Shown: positions 458 through 63,722 of the stretch, in pieces
Position numbering within the stretch: position 1 is the stretch's first letter
How the letters are laid out: each line of letters begins with the position of its first letter
Assembly (NCBI GenBank): GCA_902786465.1
Contig: CADACQ010000013.1
Location: 2,723-66,722, forward strand
From: an uncultured Eubacteriales bacterium
GTDB taxonomy: Bacteria > Bacillota > Clostridia > Christensenellales > CAG-138
Direction: 5' to 3'
Length of the DNA: 64,000 nucleotides
Translations under genes and position numbers: made by a program
Notes under the pieces: model-generated
Told to the model about the DNA's origin: nothing
The model's database searches: none
Seen by the model: the letters and a program-made list of their open reading frames with translations, nothing else

Positions 458-556
458 ATATGATAAACCTCCCATTCACATCAAACAAGGGTGTATGATA
501 GCACGAAAAGAAATAAAGTCAAGAGCATAAATCTACTGCGAAAAGGGCAAAGCGGT

Positions 557-816
557 ATTTGACCTGCGCTTTGGCGCAGGCAGCAGCCCTCGATCGCTTG
601 CGTGTGAGCCGGGGTGGGATTTGACCTGCGCTGCGGCGCAGGCCATGGGCACGGCTCTGGATCGCCACTGGGGCTTCATTCACTACCGAACCCGTTCCCC
701 CAATTACTTGCGTGAAAGTCGGGGTGGGATTTGACCTGCGCTGCGGCGCAGGCCATGGGTTCGGCTCTGAAGCCCCACCGGGGCTTCATTCACTACCGAA
801 CCCGTTCAAATCCCAC
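557..816 (-). repeat. Tandem copies of a ~100-bp structured tRNA-associated element (full copy 721-816, degenerate copy 611-697, fragment 557-581)
   Basis: GGGGTGGGATTTGACCTGCGCTGCGGCGCAGGCCATGGG...CTTCATTCACTACCGAACCCGTTC repeats with a 110-bp period; a reverse-complement homolog lies at 32317-32418. Confidence 0.85.
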
Positions 817-827
817 AATTTCGGAGA

Positions 828-867
828 CAAGTTTAAAGGGAGGGTCGTAACCCTCCCTTTAAACTTG
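828..867 (-). terminator. Long hairpin directly 3' of tRNA-Ser(GCT), probable terminator
   Basis: CAAGTTTAAAGGGAGGG-tcgtaa-CCCTCCCTTTAAACTTG, 17-bp inverted repeat. Confidence 0.7.
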
Positions 868-958
868 GCGGAGAAAGTGGGATTTGAACCCACGCACCGG
901 TCATCCCAGTCTACTCCCTTAGCAGGGGAGCCCCTTATAGCCACTTGGGTATTTCTCC
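866..958 (-). tRNA. tRNA-Ser(GCT)
   Basis: Reverse complement GGAGAAATACCCAAGTGG...CTCCC-CT GCT AA-GGGAG, long variable arm, GGTTCAAATCC T-arm, encoded CCA. Confidence 0.96.
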
Positions 959-963
959 ATATA

Positions 964-1051
964 TGGCGGAGATGGTAGGATTCGAACCCACGGGCACTTG
1001 CATGCCGACGGTTTTCAAGACCGCTTCCTTAGACCACTCGGACACATCTCC
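964..1051 (-). tRNA. tRNA-Ser(TGA)
   Basis: Reverse complement GGAGATGTGTCCGAGTGG...GCGGT-CT TGA AA-ACCGT, long variable arm, GGTTCGAATCC, encoded CCA. Confidence 0.96.
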
Positions 1052-4022: not shown

Positions 4023-4056
4023 GCTGTTTTTCGGTATGATCCAAATAAAAATGTAA

Positions 4057-4400
4057 CGAGCAAGCAGTAAGCCGAGTTCTGTCACAGGTTTCCCTGCGGA
4101 CGATTATCTATCTGAGGCCGGCTGTTGCCAGACGGCTCATGCGATTATCAGGAGCGCAGCGGGCCGCTGTTGAATGCTCCCATTCCAATCTTGCACCGGG
4201 TGGGGTTTACATGGCCGATCCGTCGCCGGACCGCCGGTGAGCTCTTGCCTCGCCTTTCCATCCTTGCCTGCCGAAGCGGGCGGTTTATTTCTGTTGCACT
4301 TTCCCTGATGTCGCCATCGCCGGGTGTTACCCGGCACCCTGCCCTGCGGTGCTCGGACTTTCCTCAGCCCTTGAGGGGCCGCAATCGTCTTGCTTACTCG
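4057..4400 (-). ncRNA. rnpB: RNase P RNA
   Basis: Reverse complement contains GAGGAAAGTCC near the 5' end and ACAGAACTCGGCTTAC near the 3' end; P1 ends are complementary (CGAGTAAGCA / TGCTTGCTCG); located after the nif3-Zn ribbon genes. Confidence 0.96.
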
Positions 4401-8159: not shown

Positions 8160-9551
8160 ATGAGCGAATTGACGATGGATAAACTGGTTTCCCTGTGCAA
8201 AGGCAGAGGCTTCATCTTTGCGGGGAGCGAGATATACGGGGGCCTCGCCAACACCTGGGACTACGGTCCCCTTGGCGTGGAGCTGAAGAACAACATCAAG
8301 AAGGCCTGGTGGAAGAAGTTCGTCCAGGAGAGCCCCTACAACGTGGGCCTGGACGCCGCCATTTTGATGAACCCCCAGACCTGGCAGGCTTCCGGCCACC
8401 TGGGCGGCTTTGCCGACCCCCTCATGGACTGCCGGGAGTGCAAGGAGCGCTTCCGCGCCGACAAGCTCATCGAGGACTGGGCGGTTGAGCACGGCGTGAC
8501 CCTCGATAAGCCCCTGGACGCCTTCTCCCAGGCGGAGATGAAAGCCTTCATCGAGGACAACAACATCCCCTGCCCCTCCTGCGGCAAGCACAACTTTACG
8601 GACATCCGGCAGTTCAACCTGATGTTCAAGACCTTCCAGGGCGTCACCGAGGACGCCAAGAACACCGTATACCTGCGCCCCGAGACGGCCCAGGGCATCT
8701 TCGTGAACTTTGCCAACGTCCAGCGGACCACCCGCAAAAAGCTCCCCTTCGGCATCGGCCAGATCGGCAAGTCCTTCCGCAACGAGATCACCCCGGGCAA
8801 CTTCATCTTCCGGGTCCGGGAGTTCGAGCAAATGGAGCTGGAGTTCTTCTGCGAGCCGGGCACCGATCTTGAGTGGTTCGACTACTGGCGTTCCTACTGC
8901 CACAACTTCCTCCTGTCCCTGGGCATGAAGGACGAGAATCTGCGGCTCCGTGACCATGATCCCGAGGAGCTGTGCTTCTATTCCAAGGCCACCACGGACT
9001 TCGAATTCCGCTTCCCCTTCGGCTGGGGCGAGCTTTGGGGCGTGGCTGATCGGACCGATTACGACCTGACCCAGCATCAAAACGCCTCCGGCAAGGATCT
9101 GAGTTACTTCGACACTGAGAAGAACGCCCGGTATATCCCCTACGTCATCGAGCCCTCTTTGGGCGTGGAGCGCACCTTCCTGGCGGTGATGTGCAACGCC
9201 TACGAGGAGCAGGAGCTCGATAAGGGCGACGTGCGGGTGGTGCTGCACCTGCATCCGGCCTTGGCCCCCTTCAAGGCGGCGGTGCTGCCGCTGAGCAAGA
9301 AGCTGGGCGAGCAGGCCTCCGCCATCCACGCGGAGCTATCGAAGTGGTTCCCCGTGGACTACGACGAGACCGGCTCCATCGGCAAGCGCTATCGCCGGGA
9401 GGACGAGATCGGCACCCCCATGTGCATCACCTACGACTTCGATTCCGAAGCGGACCACTGCGTCACCGTCCGGGATCGGGACACCATGGAGCAGGTCCGC
9501 CTGCCCATCGACCAGCTCAAGAGCTACATCGAGAGCAAGCTGGCCTTTTAA
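8160..9551 (+). CDS. glyQS: Glycine--tRNA ligase (homodimeric type)
   Basis: [54 protein letters not shown]; RBS AAGGAGG. Confidence 0.97.
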
Positions 9552-12655: not shown

Positions 12656-13288
12656 ATGGATAGGACCCGTGAGCTCCTTCTCTCCCTGGCGGCGCCGCCG
12701 CCCCACCGGTGCTGCCTGTGCGACCGGGAATCCTTGGTGGGCGAGGACGGCCTCTGCGACGAGTGTCGCCGGACACTGAAGATGGCCATCTCCCCCGCCC
12801 CGCCGGAGGGCCTGGACGGGCTCACCGCGGGCCTTCGTTACTGCGACGAGCTGGGCAGCGTCTTCTTCCGCTTCAAGGTCATGGAGCGCCGGGATTACAC
12901 GCCCTTCCTGGCCCAGTTCATCTCTATCCCCGAGGAATGGCGCGCGGAATTACTGGTGCCCGTGCCCCTCCATTGGCTGCGGCTTTACCGGCGCACCTAC
13001 AATCAAAGCTTCCTGTTGTCTGAATACGTGTCCTCCCGGTACGGCATCCCCATCTGCCAGGAGCTGCTGGTCCGCACCCGCCCCACCCGTCAACAGAAGT
13101 TCGCCAAGAACCGTCGCAAGGGGCTCAAGGGGGCGTTCCGGGCCGCGCCGGAATGTCAGGGCCGGTCCATCGTCCTCATCGACGACGTGGTCACCTCCGG
13201 CACCACCCTCTCCGAATGCGCCAGGGCACTAAAAAAGGCCGGCGCAAAGCATGTTTACGCGGCCTGTGTTGCCTGTTCCGACAGGTAA
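12656..13288 (+). CDS. comF: ComF family protein (Zn finger plus PRTase domain)
   Basis: CCLC...LCDEC, VPVPLH, LIDDVVTSGTT. Confidence 0.85.
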   Translation: MDRTRELLLSLAAPPPHRCCLCDRESLVGEDGLCDECRRTLKMAISPAPPEGLDGLTAGLRYCDELGSVFFRFKVMERRDYTPFLAQFISIPEEWRAELLVPVPLHWLRLYRRTYNQSFLLSEYVSSRYGIPICQELLVRTRPTRQQKFAKNRRKGLKGAFRAAPECQGRSIVLIDDVVTSGTTLSECARALKKAGAKHVYAACVACSDR

Positions 13289-30945: not shown

Positions 30946-31719
30946 ATGCGGCGCATCCGGACCATAATTTCATACGACGGCACGGACTATGTGGGCTGGC
31001 AGACCCAGCCCAACGGTATAGCTGTGCAAGAGGTGATCGAAAAAGCCATCCTGGAGGTGACCGGCGAACAGACCACCCTCCAGGGCAGCGGCCGCACGGA
31101 CTCCGGCGTCCACGCCCGGGCCCAGGTGGCCCACTTTGACACGGAGACCCGCATGGCGGCGGACAAGTTCGCCATCGCCCTAAACACCCACCTGCCCGCC
31201 GATATCCGGGTCCTCTATTCTGAGGAGGTCTCCCCCGATTTCCACGCCCGCTTCTCCGCCAAGGAGAAGCAGTATCGCTACTTCGTCCAGACCGGTCCCC
31301 ACGCCGACGTGTTCGCCCGCAAATACGCCCTCCACGCCTATATGCCTCTCGATCTGGACCTGATGAACGAGGCCGCCGCCCTGGCGGTGGGCACCCACGA
31401 CTTCTCGGCCTTCATGTCCACGGGCCGGGAGGTGGAAACCGCCGTCCGCACCGTGAGCCTGTCAAAATGGGAGAAACAGGGCAAGTTTTTGGTTTACACC
31501 GTCCAGGGGAACGGGTTCCTCTACAACATGGTCCGCATCCTGGTGGGTACCATGGTGGGCATGGGCAGCGGCCGCATCCCGAAGGACAGCATGGAGAAGG
31601 CCCTCGCCTCCCTGTCCCGGAAGGACGCCGGTCCCACGGCCCCGCCCCACGGCCTGGTGCTGTGGCGGGTGAAGTACCCCGACTTCGACACGGAGGAGGT
31701 GCTCTCCCGTGAACCATGA
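30946..31719 (+). CDS. truA: tRNA pseudouridine(38-40) synthase
   Basis: YDGT.Y.GWQ.Q, GRTDSGVHA, GFLYNMVR, TAPPHGL. Confidence 0.97.
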   Translation: MRRIRTIISYDGTDYVGWQTQPNGIAVQEVIEKAILEVTGEQTTLQGSGRTDSGVHARAQVAHFDTETRMAADKFAIALNTHLPADIRVLYSEEVSPDFHARFSAKEKQYRYFVQTGPHADVFARKYALHAYMPLDLDLMNEAAALAVGTHDFSAFMSTGREVETAVRTVSLSKWEKQGKFLVYTVQGNGFLYNMVRILVGTMVGMGSGRIPKDSMEKALASLSRKDAGPTAPPHGLVLWRVKYPDFDTEEVLSREP

Positions 31720-32149
31720 CGAACGCTGGATACTGGAAGCCCTGAAGGAGGCCCGTGCCGCCTTGCAGGAGGACGAGGTGCCCGTAGGCGCCGTCGTCGT
31801 CAAGGACGGCGAGATCGTGGCCCGGGCCCACAACCTGTCCCGGCAGCAGAACGATCCCACCCTCCACGCGGAGGTCCTGGCCCTTCGCGAAGCTCAAAAA
31901 CAGCTTGGGTCCCTCACCGGCTGCACCCTCTATGTGACCATGGAGCCCTGCGCCATGTGCGCCGGAGCCATGGTGCTGCTGAAGCTCCCCCGGCTGGTCT
32001 TCGGGGCCTTCGATCCAAGCTGCGGTTGCACCGGCTCCCGGGTGGATCTGACGGACCACTGGTTCTATCACTCCGTGGAGACCTGGGGCGGCGTCCTCGA
32101 AGGGGACTGCGCCGCCCTGCTGACGGAATTCTTTCAAAGAAAGCGTTGA
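31709..32149 (+). CDS. tadA: tRNA adenosine(34) deaminase
   Basis: EVPVGAV, HAE, EPCAMC, FFQRKR. Confidence 0.9.
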   Translation: MNHDERWILEALKEARAALQEDEVPVGAVVVKDGEIVARAHNLSRQQNDPTLHAEVLALREAQKQLGSLTGCTLYVTMEPCAMCAGAMVLLKLPRLVFGAFDPSCGCTGSRVDLTDHWFYHSVETWGGVLEGDCAALLTEFFQRKR

Positions 32150-32174
32150 TTTTTTGTTTTTGATACGGTATACT
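32146..32174 (+). promoter_or_regulatory. SigA promoter of tRNA-Ser(CGA)
   Basis: TTGATT-N17-TATACT, 11 nt upstream of the tRNA. Confidence 0.65.
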
Positions 32175-32185
32175 ACCCTCTGCCT

Positions 32186-32274
32186 GGAGACGTATCGAAG
32201 TGGTCATAACGGGGCTGACTCGAAATCAGTTTGCGTGAAAGCGCACGTGGGTTCGAATCCCACCGTCTCCGCCA
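32186..32274 (+). tRNA. tRNA-Ser(CGA)
   Basis: GGAGACGTATCGAAGTGG...GCTGA-CT CGA AA-TCAGT, long variable arm, GGTTCGAATCC, encoded CCA. Confidence 0.96.
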
Positions 32275-32312
32275 AAAACAAAACCACCCAACCGGGTGGT
32301 TTTGTTTTTGGC
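32271..32312 (+). terminator. Intrinsic terminator after tRNA-Ser(CGA)
   Basis: GCCAAAAACAAAACCACCC-aacc-GGGTGGTTTTGTTTTTGGC. Confidence 0.8.
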
Positions 32313-32316
32313 TATT

Positions 32317-32418
32317 GGAGACGGTGGATTCGAACGGGTTCGGTAGTGAATGAAGCGCCTGTGGCGCTTCAGAGCCGAGCCCATGGCCCGCCGCGCACGG
32401 CGGGTCGAATCCCACCCC
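32317..32418 (+). repeat. Structured tRNA-associated element, homolog of 721-816
   Basis: GGATTCGAAC GGGTTCGG TAGTGAAT GAAGCGCC-TGT-GGCGCTTC AGAG CCGAGCCC ATGG CCCGCCG-CGCA-CGGCGGG TCGAATCCCACCCC. Confidence 0.85.
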
Positions 32419-32632
32419 AGCTTACACGTACCCCCCTGGGGGCCGCAAGCCACCCGCCTAGTATCTTTCTTTGTTGGAGTTCAATCAAAACCTTAGGTTT
32501 GGAAAATGATACTTTTAATCCAAGTTGTCTTATTATTTCTTTACCGTTATCCACGCACATGATATAATTATGTTTAAGATTATGTCTATTCTTGTTTTTG
32601 CCTCTATTCTTTTGATTCGGGAGGGAAGAATA

Positions 32633-34036
32633 ATGCCTTATACTGAGATTTCGAGAAAGCCTTATAAGTCGCCCTGCGCATGCGGTAATGGATTCTTGCG
32701 TTTTTATATAATAACAAAAGAAAACGATACTGATTATGTTAAAACTATAGAGAAAAAAACTGAAGTAGAGATCCTATGCGATTATTGCAAAAACAATTAT
32801 CATTTCGAATGGTCAGATGATGAATGTGGATTTCTTGTCCCAAATGGTTTAACTTTTCCTCCTAGAATTCCTTATCTTGATAGTAAATATGATTACACTA
32901 CAGATGAAAAGTTTATCGGCAACCACGATAAAGGTGTTATTGAGAAAATGATTTCTGATATGACTGCGCCTAAGCATAGATTTATTCAAGACCTTACATT
33001 CGAACCTGCAATTGCTTTTGCAAATAATTGGGCATATAGAACAAAAAAACGCTCTTTAGCGCCAATGGTCAAATATCTTGAGAAAACTCTATCTAATTAT
33101 GATGCTATATTCACATCGCGCGCAAATAAAGAACCACATAATATTGAATACAAAAAACAGCATGAAGATAGAATACAGCGAATTGAACAAGTTAAGAACC
33201 AGAGCTATAAAGCAAATTTTGTATTTGATTCAGAACAAGATGAGATTGACCACGCGAAAGCTCGGAAAGAAAGAATTGCTCATCAATACGATCCTTTTCA
33301 AGCTATGGTGACTTATCATAATTCATATAAGGTTGATGCGACTGGACGTTATTGGGACACCCTTCATATTCTAAAATGCGTTGAACCACGATATTTTGTA
33401 CAAGAAAGCGCTTATCATCTTTCTATTGTAAAAAGGTATCTATGCAAGTGCACAATATGCAACAAGAAGCTGGTTGTTACTTCATCTGATTTTGAAATAT
33501 TATATGATGAATACGAAGGATACTTTCCTGCAGTTAAGTGTGACTGCCATATAGTATCATCATTTGAGGCAAAAGCAATGGATATCCTTAATCGCTTAGG
33601 GATTTCATATGCGCGCGAGTACTCATTTGACGATTTAGTTGGTAACAAAGATGTACCGTTACGTTTTGATTTTGCAATATTTGAACCAGATTCACAACAT
33701 AATAATTCCAGTAAAAAGATTCGACTGCTAATCGAATTGCAAGGCCCACATCATTATACGCGTGGCATATATGATAAAGATGGTAATTTTATAGAAGATA
33801 AAAGAGGAACATCTTTTTCCGCCAGAATTCGACTAAATAAGCAAAAATGCTATGATGGTTTGAAGCAACAATACTGCAAGGAGCACGAGATCATTTTAGA
33901 AACCATAAAACACGATGAAAGCGATTATACTACACTGGAAAAGCGACTGATAGATATTCTGAATCAAAATGGTTTTAATTGCAAGCAGGCTGAATTATAT
34001 ATTGACTCGGAAGAAGATTTGTTTGATCTTGATTAG
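32633..34036 (+). CDS. AT-rich orphan protein with Cys clusters and a C-terminal Vsr/DUF559-like endonuclease domain
   Basis: Strongly AT-rich versus flanks; CxC...CxxC at N-terminus; C-terminal S.FE...L....I.Y.REYSFDDL...LRFDFAI...LIELQGPHHY...D.LK.QYC....I.L..I pattern; start taken at MPYTE behind GGAGG. Confidence 0.7.
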   Translation: MPYTEISRKPYKSPCACGNGFLRFYIITKENDTDYVKTIEKKTEVEILCDYCKNNYHFEWSDDECGFLVPNGLTFPPRIPYLDSKYDYTTDEKFIGNHDKGVIEKMISDMTAPKHRFIQDLTFEPAIAFANNWAYRTKKRSLAPMVKYLEKTLSNYDAIFTSRANKEPHNIEYKKQHEDRIQRIEQVKNQSYKANFVFDSEQDEIDHAKARKERIAHQYDPFQAMVTYHNSYKVDATGRYWDTLHILKCVEPRYFVQESAYHLSIVKRYLCKCTICNKKLVVTSSDFEILYDEYEGYFPAVKCDCHIVSSFEAKAMDILNRLGISYAREYSFDDLVGNKDVPLRFDFAIFEPDSQHNNSSKKIRLLIELQGPHHYTRGIYDKDGNFIEDKRGTSFSARIRLNKQKCYDGLKQQYCKEHEIILETIKHDESDYTTLEKRLIDILNQNGFNCKQAELYIDSEEDLFDLD

Positions 34037-34047
34037 TTCTTCTCTAC

Positions 34048-34256: not shown

Positions 34257-35789
34257 ATGCTGCAAATTCGAAACGTTACCATAGTATCTCGAAAGGACGA
34301 CCGTCTGCTGGCGGACGACCTTTCCTTCACCCTGCACAAGGGCGAGCGAGCGGCCCTCATCGGCGAGGAGGGCAACGGCAAGTCCACCCTTTTAAAATGG
34401 ATATACGACCCCAACCTGGTGGAAAGCTACGCCCTGGTCAGGGGTCAGCGGGTCGTGGAGGGCAAGATGGGGTATCTCCCCCAGGAGCTGCCGCCCGAGG
34501 AGAAGGCCCTGCCCGTCTGCGCCTATATGGAGGGGGCCTGCGGGTTCTACGCCCTGTCCCCCAAGGAGATCAACGACGCAGCGGATCGGCTGGGCCTGTC
34601 CCCCGCCCTCTTCGAGGAAGCCCGGCCCATGGACACCCTATCCGGCGGAGAGCGGGTGAAGATCCAGATGGCCGCCCTCCTCCTGAGCCAATGCGATATC
34701 CTGCTGCTGGACGAGCCCTCCAACGACCTGGACATCGAGACCCTGGAATGGCTGTCTGACTTTATGAACGCCTTCCCCGGGGCCGTGCTCTACATCTCCC
34801 ACGACGAGGTCCTCTTGGAGGAGACGGCGGACGTGATCATCCACCTGGAGCAGGTGCGCCGAAAGACCATCTGCCGGTCCACCGTGTCCCGGGAGGGGTA
34901 TCGGGCGTATATGGAGAAGCGGGCCCGGCAGTTCGCCCATCAGGAACAGCAGGCCCGGTTCGAGCAGGCGGACTTTCGCAAGAAGAAGGAGCGGTATCTC
35001 TCCATCTACAACGCCGTGGAGCACGCCCAGGAAAACATAAGTCGACAAGCTCCTGCTGCCGGCAGACTACTGAAAAAGAAGATGCATGCGGTGAAGTCCA
35101 TGGGGCGGCGCCTGGACAAGGAGGAGGAAAGCCTGACCCAGCTCCCCGAAGCGGAGTGGGCCATCCTGCCCAAGTGGGAGCCGGGCATCGAGCTGAGCCG
35201 GGGCAAGGTGGTCCTGGACTTTGTTTTGGACGAGCTGCTGGTAGGCGACCGGCTGTTGTCGAAGGATATCCGGCTCAAGATCGTGGGGCCGGAAAAGGTG
35301 TGTATTTTGGGGCCCAACGGCTGCGGCAAGAGCACGCTGATGGACCGGATCGCCGAGGAGCTCCTGGCCCGCAGGGACATCCGCTGCACCTATATGCCCC
35401 AGCGCTACGGGGAGGGCGTGAGCTACAGCATGCGACCCGAGGAATTCCTTGCCCCGGACGGAGACAAGGAGAGCGTGACGAAGGCCCGGATCTATCTCGG
35501 CAGCATGAAGTACACCACCGACGAGATGAGCCACGCCGTCAGCGACCTTTCGGGGGGCCAGCGGGCCAAGCTCCTGCTGCTGAAGGCCATCCTGGACAGG
35601 AGCAACGTGCTGTTGCTGGACGAGCCCACCCGGAACTTCAGCCCCCTGTCCTGCCCCGCCGTGCGCAAGCTTCTCAGCGAGTTCCCCGGCTGCATCCTGG
35701 CCGTGTCCCACGATCGGAAGTTCATAGAGGAGGTCACTCCCGTCCTCTACACCCTGACGGAAGAGGGCTTGCAGCGGATATACAGATAG
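34257..35789 (+). CDS. ABC-F family ATPase
   Basis: Two ABC cassettes (GEEGNGKS / LSGGE / DEPSN and GPNGCGKS / LSGGQ / DEPTRN), helical linker, no TM domain. Confidence 0.9.
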   Translation: MLQIRNVTIVSRKDDRLLADDLSFTLHKGERAALIGEEGNGKSTLLKWIYDPNLVESYALVRGQRVVEGKMGYLPQELPPEEKALPVCAYMEGACGFYALSPKEINDAADRLGLSPALFEEARPMDTLSGGERVKIQMAALLLSQCDILLLDEPSNDLDIETLEWLSDFMNAFPGAVLYISHDEVLLEETADVIIHLEQVRRKTICRSTVSREGYRAYMEKRARQFAHQEQQARFEQADFRKKKERYLSIYNAVEHAQENISRQAPAAGRLLKKKMHAVKSMGRRLDKEEESLTQLPEAEWAILPKWEPGIELSRGKVVLDFVLDELLVGDRLLSKDIRLKIVGPEKVCILGPNGCGKSTLMDRIAEELLARRDIRCTYMPQRYGEGVSYSMRPEEFLAPDGDKESVTKARIYLGSMKYTTDEMSHAVSDLSGGQRAKLLLLKAILDRSNVLLLDEPTRNFSPLSCPAVRKLLSEFPGCILAVSHDRKFIEEVTPVLYTLTEEGLQRIYR

Positions 35790-61000: not shown

Positions 61001-63722
61001 TATAAACATCGACGGTACGGAACTGCGCAACGGCGACGATATTGCCATTGACGACTGTAGCGGCAGTGACGTCTGCACCGGTCTCCTGATCAACCCACTT
61101 CTCGAAGATCTTGCCTTCGATGAAGGGATCCTGCGGCATGGTGCCGATGGGGTCGCCTTCGGTGCGGAAGTACTGCGACAGGGTCTCGATGACTGTTACG
61201 CCATCGTCGTCCAGAATGACGAAGCGGACGTAGAACTCGTCCCTAAACTCCGCGATGATCTCCATATCGGAGGTAACCGGGGTGCCTGCGCTGATCGGTT
61301 GATCGTTGTATAACCAACGCACAAATTCCTTGCCTTCGACTACGGGCTCCGCGGGAAGGACAAGTTCATCGTTCTTATTATACTTCTCGGTCTTGTAGCT
61401 GTTGCCTTCCACCTTGAAGACAACGGTGAAGACGTTCTGGTCATACGCGGGCCAAACGTTCGTGTCGGCGCTCACCGCCACCTGATTGGTGAAATCACCG
61501 CCGGAGTATACCCACTTGCCCAGGCTGCCGCTCTGGGCGGGGACTGCCGGCATGTCGTTCACGCAGTAGTTGGAGTCCGCGGTGACCGTCCTGGTAGCAA
61601 TGGGTTCGCCAGTGCAGGTTTCGTCCGCATAGAAGGTCACCGTATAGGTGATCTTGTCATAATCAGGACCGATGGTCAGATCGTCATTGACCGGGATGGT
61701 GGTGGTAGTGATCCTCTCGCTGGCTGTCCACGTTTGCTGGCCTTCGCCAGTGACCGTGCCATAGGCCCAGTACGCGGTGTACCCGTCGCGGGGGATCAGA
61801 TCGGTGGAAGGCAGGGTGATCTCCGTGCCGTCATCGACCGTCCTGGTCTCCAGCAGGTTAGCGTCTCTGTCGTAGAATTTGACCGTCCAGACCTTGACGT
61901 AGGACGCGGTGACGGTCATGTCGCCGGTGGGAACGGTGTCGGCGTCGACCGCTTCATTATTGGAAACCCACTTGTCGAAGCGATAGCCTTCCTTTGCGGG
62001 CGCAGCGGGGAACTCGCCGATGGCGGAACCCTTGGCGACAGAGCGGGTCTCCAGGGTTTCGTCGTCAGCAACGAAGGTGACCGTCCAGGATTCGTTATGC
62101 GCGGCATACAGGACGCCGTAATACCAATCATCGCCGCCCTGGCCATCGGGGCGGAAGTAGATCGTGTAGCTTCCGGCATCGTTTATCGTCAGGTTGGAGC
62201 CTTCACCGGGATACCAGACGTCGTTCGAGCCTTTTACCTTGAGCTGTGTGTTCGCCGGAAGACTCACCGTGATCATATACTCGGTGTCTACGTTAGCGCT
62301 GAGCTTATAATCACCGCTGATCGTCCAATTGTTCATGGTGCCAACCAGATAGTAACTAACGGCCGGCGCCTTAATGGGCCCGCCCATACCAGGCTTGACG
62401 CCATTAAGCTCGGAATCGGTCTCACCGTTGTCCATCGCCTCGCCGGGTTCGGCAGGGTCGACAGGCTCTACGGATTCAGCGGGCTCAGGGAAGGAAAGCG
62501 TCAGCGTGCCTTCCACGCCCTCGTCAGTGGTGAAGGTGATGACGACGGTATCGAAACGGACACCTGCCTGGGGCCGGAGCACGAACTCGCCGGGATCACT
62601 CGCCTCGACGATGACCAGGTCGGGCAGGTCCACGGACATCCGGGCTACGCCGCTGGTCTCATAACCGGCATCGCGAAGGAAGCCGGCCAAACGGATATAG
62701 TCTGCTTCCGACGTGAACGTATAAGACAAGGTTATGGGCTCCGCCGGTGTTTCAGGATCGGCATCCTCTTCGGTCTGCTCGGCAGCGGAAACCAGAACCA
62801 GGGCTACACCAATCGTGCCTTCAGCATTTACTGAAAGGTTGACCTGGCTTCCCTGGGACAAGTCGACCTTGATGGGAGCGTCGGAGAGACTGTTGTCAAC
62901 CAGAGAATAGAACACCAAGGACTCCCCTTCGCTAAGCGCGGGAAGCGTACGAAGAACGACTGAGAGAGTGATCTCAGTGTGGTTATCGAGTCCGTTGACG
63001 GCCACGGTTTCCAGGACGGTGAGGCTACCGGCATTGACTGCGCCGATTGCCGATATGGAGGGAACATCATGAGTGTCATTGTACGTCCCACTGGCGACGG
63101 CACTGAGATAGGCGCCGGTGTACTCCTGGCTGAAAGCAGCTTCGTGCTTGCCCAGCTCGGATTCCTCCTCGTCTTCCTCATCAGTATGCTCGCTGTCCTC
63201 GGCGCCCATGGTGGCTTCCTCACCATCTTCCGCGCCTTCGGTCTGCTCCGCGCCATCGATGTTCTCGGAGTCCTCGGCGCCCTCGGTGGCTTCCTCGCCA
63301 TCTTCCACGCCTTCGGTCTGCTCCGCGCCCTCAGTGGTCTCGGAGTCCTCAGCGCCGTCGGTGGCTTCAGCAGACACCTCATCGGGACCGGGTACGCGAA
63401 TCACCACCGTGGCGGGTTCGGCCACAGCATCAGATTCGGCAGACGCGTCCGGAACAGCGTCGGATTCGGCAGACGCGTCCGGAACAGCGTCGGATTCGCC
63501 ATATGCGTCCGGATCAGCGTCGGATACGGCAGACGCGTTCGGATCAGCGTCGGATACTTCCTCCGCATTGTCCGTAGCAGCGGGCTGTACCACTTGCTGT
63601 GTCGTTTCTTCCACACCATCGGTCTCCGTTCTGGTCTCGGTGCCATCGTCTGCGAACGCAGAGACAGGGCACAGCGAAATTACCATCAGGATGCTCAGCA
63701 GCAGGGAAATCGCTCTTCTCAT
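55003..63722 (-). CDS. Giant repetitive surface protein (~2896 aa if the 29-bp duplication is removed); frameshifted in this sequence into 56442-63722 and 55003-56427
   Basis: Signal peptide, acidic repeats, a carbohydrate-binding-like module, Listeria-Bacteroides (InlB-B) repeats (P.RDGYTFAGWY...TTLYAKW), MucBP-like, MBG-like (LTITADSTSKPYDGT) and DUF11/DUF7507-like (VTYTVVVTNSGNV) repeats; 8720-29=8691 nt, an exact multiple of 3. Confidence 0.85.
56417..56474. repeat. Perfect 29-bp tandem duplication causing the frameshift
   Basis: CTCACCGTCACGTTGCCGCTGTTCGTTAC x2. Confidence 0.92.
63190..63557 (-). repeat. Acidic intragenic tandem repeats (30-bp unit at 63424-63557; ~66-bp unit at ~63190-63365)
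   Basis: SDA(D/V)P(D/N)ASA(E/V) about 4.5 times, and GAEDSE...GAEQTEG.EDGEEAT about 2.5 times. Confidence 0.8.

Follow-up and report, generated by a model that had tools for sequence, protein, structure and literature searches.

We analyzed a 64,000-nt stretch (the window) of contig CADACQ010000013.1 from the genome of an uncultured gut bacterium (Eubacteriales), an assembly of 1.99 Mb in 58 contigs that is 71% complete. Directly behind its tRNA-Ser(cga) gene, the window carries an element of ~100 nt (32317-32428 on the + strand) that recurs behind other tRNA genes of the same genome. An initial annotation of this DNA had compared two copies of the element and had suggested that its ends are templated by the host tRNA. 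We find that the element holds an uncatalogued structured core with freely covarying stems and fixed loops, and our sequence comparisons point to the host tRNA as the template of its ends, with strong support on the 3' side and moderate support on the 5' side. The tRNA-Ser(cga) locus contains the following parts:

32146-32174: promoter-like site directly upstream of tRNA-Ser(cga) (promoter prediction)
32186-32274, + strand: tRNA-Ser(cga), CCA encoded (ARAGORN; Rfam tRNA, 55.1 bits)
32250-32274, + strand: segment a of the tRNA, from the T-loop to the 3' end (ARAGORN)
32272-32311, + strand: palindromic hairpin CCAAAAACAAAACCACCC AACC GGGTGGTTTTGTTTTTGG, starting inside the tRNA CCA (sequence reading; forms in read-through folds)
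32317-32335, + strand: a', the reverse complement of tRNA 32252-32271 with one base missing (sequence reading)
32336-32382, + strand: core arm P2, 47 nt (fold, core alignment, covariance model, covariation counts)
32383-32404, + strand: joiner ATGG followed by hairpin P3, CCCGCCG CGCA CGGCGGG (P3 at 32387-32404, 7 bp; sequence, fold)
32405-32416, + strand: distal direct copy of a, equal to tRNA 32253-32264 (3' part of the T-loop plus 3' strand of the T-stem), forming the 3' strand of closing stem P1 (exact 12-nt repeat TCGAATCCCACC)

Along the + strand, the copy reads GGAGACGGTGGATTCGAAC / GGGTTCGG TAGTGAAT GAAGCGCC TGT GGCGCTTC AGAG CCGAGCCC / ATGG / CCCGCCG CGCA CGGCGGG / TCGAATCCCACC. Arm P2 is made up of stem P2a (GGGTTCGG/CCGAGCCC), stem P2b (GAAGCGCC/GGCGCTTC) and a TGT tip, with an 8/4-nt internal loop in which TAGTGAAT (32344-32351) stands opposite AGAG (32371-32374). 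The segment a', correctly described in the initial annotation as a near-perfect inverted copy of the tRNA 3' end, contains the T-loop, the 3' strand of the T-stem and the 3' strand of the acceptor stem in inverted form, and its 3' part provides the 5' strand of P1; among 29 tRNAs, its own tRNA was the top match (score of 16 vs. 13.5). The match of the distal copy to the tRNA ends after CCCACC. The element folds into a three-way junction of -60.8 kcal/mol (z = -5.5), a value equaled by 0/200 shuffled sequences. Five bases separate a' from the preceding hairpin, which consists of an A-run, a GC stem and a T-run, the runs themselves being paired. On our reading of the sequence this would be a two-way intrinsic terminator; a consensus terminator scan did not flag it as a terminator.

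Further copies of the element lie behind tRNA-Ser(gct), on the - strand of the window (540-1051):

964-1051, - strand: tRNA-Ser(tga), partner in a two-tRNA unit (ARAGORN)
866-958, - strand: tRNA-Ser(gct), last gene of the two-tRNA unit (ARAGORN, Rfam)
~828-865, - strand: hairpin between tRNA-Ser(gct) and the element (repeat search, I16)
711-816, - strand: first copy, with ends GGGATTTGAAC ... GTCAAATCCCAC that track the tRNA T-loop TTCAAAT (sequence, repeat search, core alignment)
601-700, - strand: second tandem copy, partly decayed, with imperfect 5' arm and P2b (repeat families D6 and D16; model)
~540-590, - strand: remnant consisting of P3 plus arm (sequence, repeat search)

The repeat search paired copy 711-816 with copy 32317-32428 as an inverted repeat of 103 nt with 85% complementarity. 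Read as the reverse complement, copy 711-816 has the stems GAAGCCCC/GGGGCTTC, CCTGCGC/GCGCAGG and GATTTGA/TCAAATC, which differ on both sides from those of the Ser(cga) copy, while TAGTGAAT, AGAG, ATGG and CGCA are unpaired and identical in both, as the initial annotation had reported. Its description of the closing stem as following the local tRNA likewise proved accurate, the T-loop being TTCAAAT in Ser(gct) and TTCGAAT in Ser(cga).

Conserved fold of the core

Three parts are common to the family, namely arm P2, hairpin P3 with its CGCA loop, and closing stem P1. Since covariation between two copies alone is weak, the matter was settled by family-wide alignments. An alignment of 13 cores from the source genome had 93.8% of its cells paired, and 14 of the 16 pairs had changed on both sides; 0/500 shuffles were as good, and alignments slid against each other were 29-49% paired. 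From these 13 cores we built a covariance model (R1), and the 39 distinct cores that it found in other genomes of the genus were 98.2% paired, with compensatory changes again at 14/16 pairs. The P3 stem showed such changes both between copies and between species. Opposite to this free covariation of the stems stand the conserved unpaired motifs: NAGTGAAT / AGAG, which includes the asymmetric internal loop of P2 (5' NAGUGAAU opposite 3' AGAG), the C-NGT-G tip of P2 and the CGCA loop of P3. As cores found by pattern search carry the loop motifs by construction, we judged loop invariance from the model-found cores only, and among the 39 distinct ones NAGTGAAT, AGAG and C-NGT-G were nearly invariant.

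At gathering score, Rfam 15 matched nothing in the window besides three tRNAs and RNase P; at E-values up to 10, nothing covered the core at either window locus, and there were 0 matches among 10 loci of the form without a tRNA (see below). The core thus matches no Rfam 15 family and is an uncatalogued structured repeat of ~100 nt.

Element ends follow the neighboring tRNA

We compared the element flanks with tRNAs, where counts for the "first 80 loci" below refer to L059-L138 and the pooled counts (201 distinct cores, arm and block analyses) to all loci up to L200. Among 36 tRNA-adjacent units from other genomes, covering 19 anticodons, the 3' flank scored higher against its cognate tRNA than against tRNAs of all other anticodons in 31 cases (median match of 18.5 vs. 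12), whereas the inverted 5' flank of the same units had the cognate tRNA as its best match in 17 cases, with 8 ties (median of 12 vs. 12). The 3' flank also best matched the adjacent tRNA in 10 of the 12 tRNA-adjacent cores of the source genome; the two misses were the Ser(gct) copies, in which the match reaches only through the T-stem. The proposal of templated ends was therefore upheld for the 3' side, and ends that stay constant regardless of the tRNA were not seen. The more specific expectation that the 5' strand would match the cognate tRNA better than other tRNAs came true for 17/36 units and failed for the rest, ties included, the matching stretch usually being only ~12 nt. In most units a' covers just the T-loop and the T-stem, and the 19-nt a' of the Ser(cga) copy is exceptional.

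The block of identity with the tRNA started between -23 and -19 from the last base of the tRNA, that is, in the T-loop, in 39/50 units, while its end ranged from -11 to beyond +60 and included the hairpin in 14/50. Perfect complements of at least 9 nt joined the P1 arms to their own partners in 54/101 units, compared to 71/995 for foreign partners. Where tRNAs of the same anticodon differ in their T-stems between lineages, as for Arg(acg), the arms follow each of them. We take these sequence comparisons to show that the neighboring tRNA has been copied into both flanks, in direct orientation on the 3' side (from the T-loop to the CCA or beyond, often through the terminator) and with the same segment inverted on the 5' side, and that the two flanks pair into P1; the constant junction, as located by the identity blocks, lies in the T-loop. 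The apparent covariation of the closing stem arises because both strands are DNA copies of the local tRNA tail (forward, inverted, forward). A compensatory change in P1 is hence a copied tRNA difference, not an independent double mutation or a stepwise compensation of bases.

Position relative to tRNA genes

Pattern and model searches found 15 cores in the source genome, all of which lie directly downstream of a tRNA gene or a tRNA remnant, on the tRNA strand. The tRNAs concerned are Leu(taa), Ala(cgc), Lys(ctt), Ser(gga) (two cores), Ser(gct) (two cores), Ser(cga), Arg(acg) (two cores), Glu(ctc) and Trp(cca), with the Lys(ctt) core standing at the end of an eight-tRNA operon. Two cores appeared to be orphans. 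The first is preceded by what is left of a tRNA-Met tail (13 nt), and its arms are Met-like. The other belongs to a duplicate of the Trp unit, with hairpin, a', core and a, that is 97% identical to the original, lies ~0.75 kb further on, beyond the C43/C15 contig junction, and keeps the exact boundaries of the unit despite its displacement. The two Trp units flank an open reading frame (ORF) of the GNAT family (L006:1720-2196 on C43, continuing into C15:1-232, and C15:345-497), a layout that would be expected if a small circle with one unit and the gene had been inserted by a single crossover. Altogether, 9 of the 16 visible tRNA-unit ends in the source genome have the element, and a variant with a hairpin but no core is found at 2 others.

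The orientation held across genomes. Within 700 nt of 201 distinct cores, a tRNA was found upstream on the same strand for 79, upstream on the opposite strand for 3, downstream on the same strand for 6 and downstream on the opposite strand for 0. At three tRNA-Asp loci (L064, L122, L135) the unit starts 33-39 nt after the tRNA without a hairpin between them, and at two of these (L122, L135) another tRNA follows the unit.

Many family members have no tRNA nearby. In the first 80 loci, 20/84 cores had an upstream tRNA and 64/84 had none. The latter keep the core and P3 (...GACCGAG-CCGCAG-CGAGA...), show GGGTAGCGAAGCG where the T-loop complement would stand, have one additional, variable hairpin and ...CTGAGGG at the 3' side, and are directly preceded by a small CCCTC-loop-GAGGG hairpin. 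Their nearest upstream ORF was co-directional in 36/46 cases and the downstream ORF in 17/37 (crude ORF calls), indicating that the element tends to sit in the sense orientation behind genes, as it does behind tRNAs. Terminators near these copies (10/44 upstream, 15/44 downstream) did not differ from the antisense control (11 and 13), and an all-against-all BLAST of the ORFs within 2.5 kb of the 84 cores found no neighbor protein recurring in more than three loci. Near many of these non-tRNA copies in other metagenome-assembled genomes (MAGs) of Clostridia (e.g., L088, L096, L129), we also came across another short palindromic repeat, GCCTCCCCT-nnnn-AGGGGAGGC, which may be a separate family similar to repetitive extragenic palindromic (REP) sequences.

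Distribution

Of the 16 further genomes from the genus, 15 gave matches to model R1, at 2-20 each; the exception, G002, is 95% complete and lacks the element. Relatives from other genera carried it in 3 of 44 sampled genomes. The element has multiplied to about 15-20 copies in the source genus. A pattern scan over one genome per species yielded at least 120 stretches, whose titles are almost all uncultured Clostridia, Oscillospiraceae, Acutalibacteraceae and "Eubacteriales" MAGs from animal and other guts. Tandem arrays occur as well: on the reverse strand of L024 (G011:C3, ~1340-1930), five units of ~113 nt follow tRNA-Ser(gct), in which the P2 and P3 stems vary yet stay paired and the full tRNA tail is found only at the last unit. 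The phage contig L186 has two copies of the non-tRNA form in opposite orientation, at 9075-9107 (+) and 12727-12759 (-), 3.65 kb apart. An autonomous master element was considered and rejected, as two phage-contig copy pairs spaced 3.65 kb apart enclose ordinary phage genes (terminase beside portal; CHAP) and no recombinase.

Orthologous loci and neighboring genes

At the locus orthologous to Ser(cga), genomes G007 and G016 have the element with changed stems and the fold kept. Genomes G003 and G009 have a' and a around a different insert that we call type B, in which tRNA-derived inverted and direct arms enclose a plain A/T-flanked GC hairpin and no core; G016 has both types in tandem, and G002 has neither the element nor a'. 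Across five species (the source and four others), a' at Ser(cga) is invariant, while the adjacent terminator varies. Type B units occur at Ser(cga), Pro(cgg) and Arg(ccg) (L051 and L052 in G003 and G009; L050 in G016; C5:4530-4640 and C28:15915-16080 in the source genome, where the sites are Pro(cgg) and Arg(ccg)). A clean pair of filled and empty orthologous sites was not obtained, the flanks of Ser(cga) in G002 failing to align downstream and the Ala(cgc) locus being rearranged among species.

Single genes lie directly after the distal tRNA-tail copy at the Ala(cgc) locus, namely an APH-family phosphotransferase ORF in G016 (L205:2453-3292) and, at the same position, a GNAT acetyltransferase ORF on the minus strand in G014 (L203:2544-3002); the source genome has no gene there. 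At the Ser(cga) locus of the window, the element is separated from the conserved promoter region of the following gene by a 1.6-kb insert of 35-45% GC (32465-34045). This insert holds one 503-aa ORF (32525-34036), whose sole Pfam match is to an endonuclease family and falls under the cut-off (20.1 vs. 24.2 bits). Genomes G016, G003 and G009 lack the insert at their orthologous locus, and a different AT-rich insert occupies this place in G007. The gene after the insert (34257-35789) encodes a two-domain ABC ATPase, and the one upstream of tRNA-Ser(cga) (31709-32149, + strand) belongs to the cytidine/adenosine-deaminase family (MafB19-deam and dCMP_cyt_deam_1 matches) and probably encodes a tRNA adenosine deaminase. 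Elsewhere in the window, a class A bacterial RNase P RNA lies at 4053-4400 on the - strand (271.5 bits), and tandem repeats with 75-nt and 30-nt periods (families D17 and D2) occupy 63179-63573, probably inside a coding region.

Comparison with known systems

The element shares several traits with REP sequences and bacterial interspersed mosaic elements (BIMEs), which are likewise short, multi-copy, strongly folding intergenic repeats that often stand in tandem behind genes, and it also has a GTAG tetranucleotide before its inner hairpin (GGTAGTGAAT). It differs from them in being a three-way junction with an invariant 8/4-nt internal loop instead of a simple palindrome, in its fixed orientation to the upstream gene and in having arms copied from the neighboring tRNA. 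The initial annotation had pointed to a co-occurring HUH transposase of the REP-associated tyrosine transposase (RAYT) type or a reverse transcriptase as a possible companion, which our searches did not bear out. Y1_Tnp (PF01797) gave 0 matches in the source genome (71% complete) and was present in 1/5 genus genomes, 4 of those 5 holding 14-18 element copies; RVT_1 (PF00078) likewise gave 0 in the source genome and was present in 1/5; and TnpB (PF07282) was found in neither the source genome nor any of the 5. We accordingly rejected a REP element with its RAYT, as the Y1 HUH transposase does not accompany the repeat; an element derived from IS200/IS605, such as a palindrome-associated transposable element (PATE) or an omega-RNA remnant, as no TnpB was found in the genomes examined and Y1 in 1/5 genus genomes; and a tRNA-primed retroelement repeat, as reverse transcriptase is absent from the source genome and present in 1/5. 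A miniature inverted-repeat transposable element (MITE) was set aside as well, since the inverted arms are locus-specific copies of the local tRNA and the target duplication, at ~12 to >80 nt, is not of fixed length.

Integrases that cross over in the T-loop, as those of genomic islands and prophages, leave displaced tRNA 3'-end repeats. The element resembles such scars in that a direct tRNA repeat from the T-loop to or past the 3' end bounds an insert beside an intact tRNA, with variable cargo nearby, and by block start (39/50) and best cognate match (31/36) its duplications fall into the T-loop class. No integrase gene or cargo was found between the repeats, where the 100-170 nt hold only the hairpin, a' and the core, without an ORF. 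The element further differs in that its "island" is geneless, that one and the same core is found with many tRNA species, that the tail is present in an inverted copy as well, and that it has relatives without a tRNA. In integron attC sites and the attP(+) of the CTX phage, two inverted target-like copies and a spacer similarly fold to mimic a double-stranded target, with structure conserved over stem sequence, whereas the element units sit in the chromosome in unrecombined form. The outer boxes of attC sites, R'' (RYYYAAC) and R' (GTTRRRY), surround an imperfect palindrome. An integron attC was rejected, as the outer ..TTCGAAC / GTTCGAA.. of the element breaks this consensus at the fourth-from-last and fourth bases.

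Among tRNA-like RNAs, the tRNA-like domain of transfer-messenger RNA (tmRNA), the bacterial YrlA and viral tRNA-like structures mimic the acceptor and T-arm. On paper, the element resembles them in that its ends pair, its 3' strand corresponds to the T-stem/acceptor strand of a tRNA, many copies end in NCCA, and the body is exchanged for another module. Many units indeed continue from the T-stem and acceptor strand into NCCA (Ala, Ser(gga), Trp; L059, L087, L125), whereas the match of the Ser(cga) copy stops after the T-stem. A weak sub-threshold match to permuted tmRNA (27.7 bits vs. a gathering score of 47) spans the tRNA tail, the hairpin and a'. The differences are that the T-loop of the element is paired in P1 with none free, that the element has no Rfam match at gathering score, and that its mimic varies with the neighboring tRNA.

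The double T-loop module, which docks on the tRNA elbow, has AGNNA ... UGNNA on two loop strands (PMC3664808). The likeness lies in the two strands of an internal loop, which also form the module in RNase P, and in the motifs AGAGA and ..GGUGAAA of T-box Stem I, as seen with a T-box of the source genome, to be compared with AGAG and AGUGAAU of the element. Of the elbow-docking rule, AGUGA on the 5' strand NAGUGAAU fits the first half, while UGNNA is missing from the other strand (AGAGC) and UGAAU has a final U. Even at E-values up to 10, the element gave no match to a T-box. With the AGNNA...UGNNA rule not followed, we dropped the double T-loop/T-box idea. A kink-turn consists of a C stem, a 3-nt bulge and tandem G.A/A.G pairs. 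Drawn on paper, the element would give CGGU-AGU-GA.. opposite ..GA-GCCG, which needs an extra bulged A and places U, G or C opposite G at the -1 pair.

Turning to the copying process, quasi-palindrome correction arises by replication template switching, and by analogy template switching may be the mechanism by which the tRNA segments were copied. Inverted triplications formed by origin-dependent inverted-repeat amplification (ODIRA), likewise have a forward, inverted, forward order with junctions at hairpin-forming inverted repeats (PMC11790251). Compared to such triplications, the element operates at a scale of 12-60 nt instead of kilobases, and its copying would have to happen anew at many tRNA loci, always with the core at the second junction.

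Discussion

We tentatively favor the interpretation that the core is a conserved structured RNA module in tRNA trailer or operon transcripts, closed by a tRNA-like helix, P1, whose sequence was taken over from the local tRNA through DNA copying guided by the T-loop and by hairpins. New tRNA-linked copies would arise by recombination or template switching in the T-loop and at hairpins, and the T-loop would serve as the copying junction because it is the only stretch common to all tRNAs. Selection may maintain the core because read-through, trailer or operon transcripts of the tRNA would carry it as RNA. P1 would give it a T-arm/acceptor-like helix with the tRNA 3' end, so that it could be handled by tRNA end-processing enzymes, and the invariant loop may be a docking site for a partner. 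In 29 tRNA-type units outside the genus, a terminator-like hairpin was found 36-164 nt after the core in 21/29, mostly right behind the distal ...CCA, and the sense strand folded slightly better than the antisense strand in 75/106 and 62/74 units, an asymmetry of no use for assigning the strand of the structure. The orientation to tRNAs and to upstream ORFs, the hairpin-free units at the three Asp loci and the conserved loops within freely changing stems also speak for an RNA, as do the lack of a transposase link and of a recurring neighbor protein. No promoter was predicted between the tRNA and the element, which makes the tRNA promoter the only visible source of such an RNA. Contigs from ruminant-gut RNA libraries allow no conclusion on expression either way, since they show neither transcription, ends nor strand and the family is multi-copy: a contig with tandem elements (X7) had a depth of 31.9 vs. 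7-16 for neighbor genes, and in X8, X12 and X13 the bin 32276-32509 had a depth of 0.06-3.8, with 15-143 for the tRNA bin (assembled contigs). A bolder version, which we regard as unlikely, is that expression of the units would yield a set of chimeric tRNA mimics, with a separate mimic for every tRNA species that joins the docking module to the T-arm/acceptor 3' strand and CCA of the neighboring tRNA; freed by tRNA processing, they would act in trans as decoys, sensors or primers for tRNA 3'-end factors (RNase P, the CCA-adding enzyme, tRNA-targeting toxins, phage nucleases). In the alternative form of this version, the core would be a new class of self-cleaving ribozyme that trims tRNA trailers.

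Several observations weigh against an RNA module. A terminator-like hairpin stands between the tRNA and the unit in 22 of the 29 tRNA-type units outside the genus and at both window loci, so that an element RNA would need read-through. The lack of a predicted promoter between the two also counts against an RNA. The stems are nearly pure Watson-Crick and carry no strand signal (G-U vs. A-C pairs: 15 vs. 8 of ~1200; 6 vs. 3 in the 39 model-found cores; 5.9% vs. 5.6% in the folds of the two strands), and a DNA hairpin fits at least as well. Type B units have the same arms without the core, and the arms thus do not need it. Several pairs of the core stems are not the same in closely related species, and the version in G007 equals the P2b stem of other source-genome paralogues, which suggests swapping of cores instead of selection in place. 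The spread is patchy, with 9 of 150 genomes in a sample of the class carrying 1-4 copies each; 18 viral contigs carry the element, and in L186 one copy lies between the portal and terminase genes, antisense to both. Patchy spread, a lineage burst, tandem arrays, displaced copies and phage copies are the habits of a selfish repeat.

Nearly as likely, and ranked close behind the RNA module, is a selfish hairpin DNA repeat, similar to REPs or MITEs and acting as folded single-stranded or cruciform DNA. It would spread to places rich in hairpins, tRNA T-arms and terminators among them, and the copied tRNA segments would then be target duplications and the loops the recognition site of a recombinase acting in trans or of a host factor, without any role as RNA. 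To the multi-copy, patchy, genus-level burst, arrays of up to five units, phage-contig copies in both orientations and Watson-Crick-only stems that are equal on both strands, one can add the displaced unit with exact boundaries and the one next to the 13-nt tRNA-Met remnant, the presence, absence and alternation of the core-bearing type (A) with type B at one orthologous locus, and an insert flanked by direct repeats. However, none of the candidate enzymes (Y1_Tnp, RVT_1, TnpB) tracks the element and no neighbor gene recurs; the supposed target duplication has a fixed start and an end that varies by >70 nt, unlike a staggered cut; conserved unpaired motifs with free stems are the pattern of a folded single strand and not of duplex transposon ends; the orientation to tRNAs is strict (79 to 3 to 0); and most carrier genomes have only 1-4 copies.

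Two further readings fare less well. We consider it quite unlikely that the units are integrase scars or miniature satellites at tRNA genes, with the tRNA-tail repeat as attL/attR of a T-loop-type integration and the core as part of an attP arm or as a folded single-stranded att site, of which integron attC and the CTX phage are examples. An identity block that begins in the T-loop and reaches or passes the 3' end of the tRNA, as in 39/50 units, is what, after Williams in 2002, is said to be the classic signature of tRNA-gene integration, and foreign single-gene inserts right after the distal copy at several loci, as well as the GNAT gene between two 97%-identical Trp units, would fit such an origin. 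But one core family stands at at least 19 tRNA species, 9 of them in one genome, which would require many integrase specificities or one that is blind to all but the T-loop; moreover, the units carry no gene, many relatives have no tRNA-like flanks (64/84 cores without an upstream tRNA in the first 80 loci), and TTCGAAC / GTTCGAA is found in place of the attC boxes RYYYAAC / GTTRRRY. Very unlikely, in our view, is the RNA switch on tRNA maturation that the initial annotation had raised, in which a' in the read-through RNA would capture the 3' half of the tRNA while the distal direct copy competes. Its backing comes from thermodynamic folding of the read-through RNAs, in whose minimum-energy folds (-141.5 and -131.2 kcal/mol) the pairing of a' with the 3' half of its own tRNA runs through the terminator, and the invariance of a' at Ser(cga) in five species despite the varying terminator would be in line with it. 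Elsewhere, though, a' is mostly ~12 nt of T-loop and T-stem (a median of 12, equal to the best non-cognate match), and many family members have no tRNA to regulate.

In the open-access literature searched, we found no description of such an element, and we could not find the design of a constant core with a tRNA-rewritten stem described. If the element acts as RNA, gut Clostridia and their phages would share a widespread structured RNA that has no name yet, in which each preceding tRNA rewrites the closing helix of an otherwise constant module, and which would offer a natural series of tRNA-tail mimics for RNase P, the CCA-adding enzyme and tRNA-directed toxins. If it acts at the DNA level, it would be a clean example from nature of forward, inverted, forward copying under the guidance of hairpins and T-loops, by which the 3' sides of most tRNA genes of a genus are reshaped, and it would mark spots where single genes (APH, GNAT, ORFs of no known family) are picked up. 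On either reading, it explains "tRNA fragments" met by island-finding and tRNA-annotation tools, and the covariance model supplied here can be used for their annotation.

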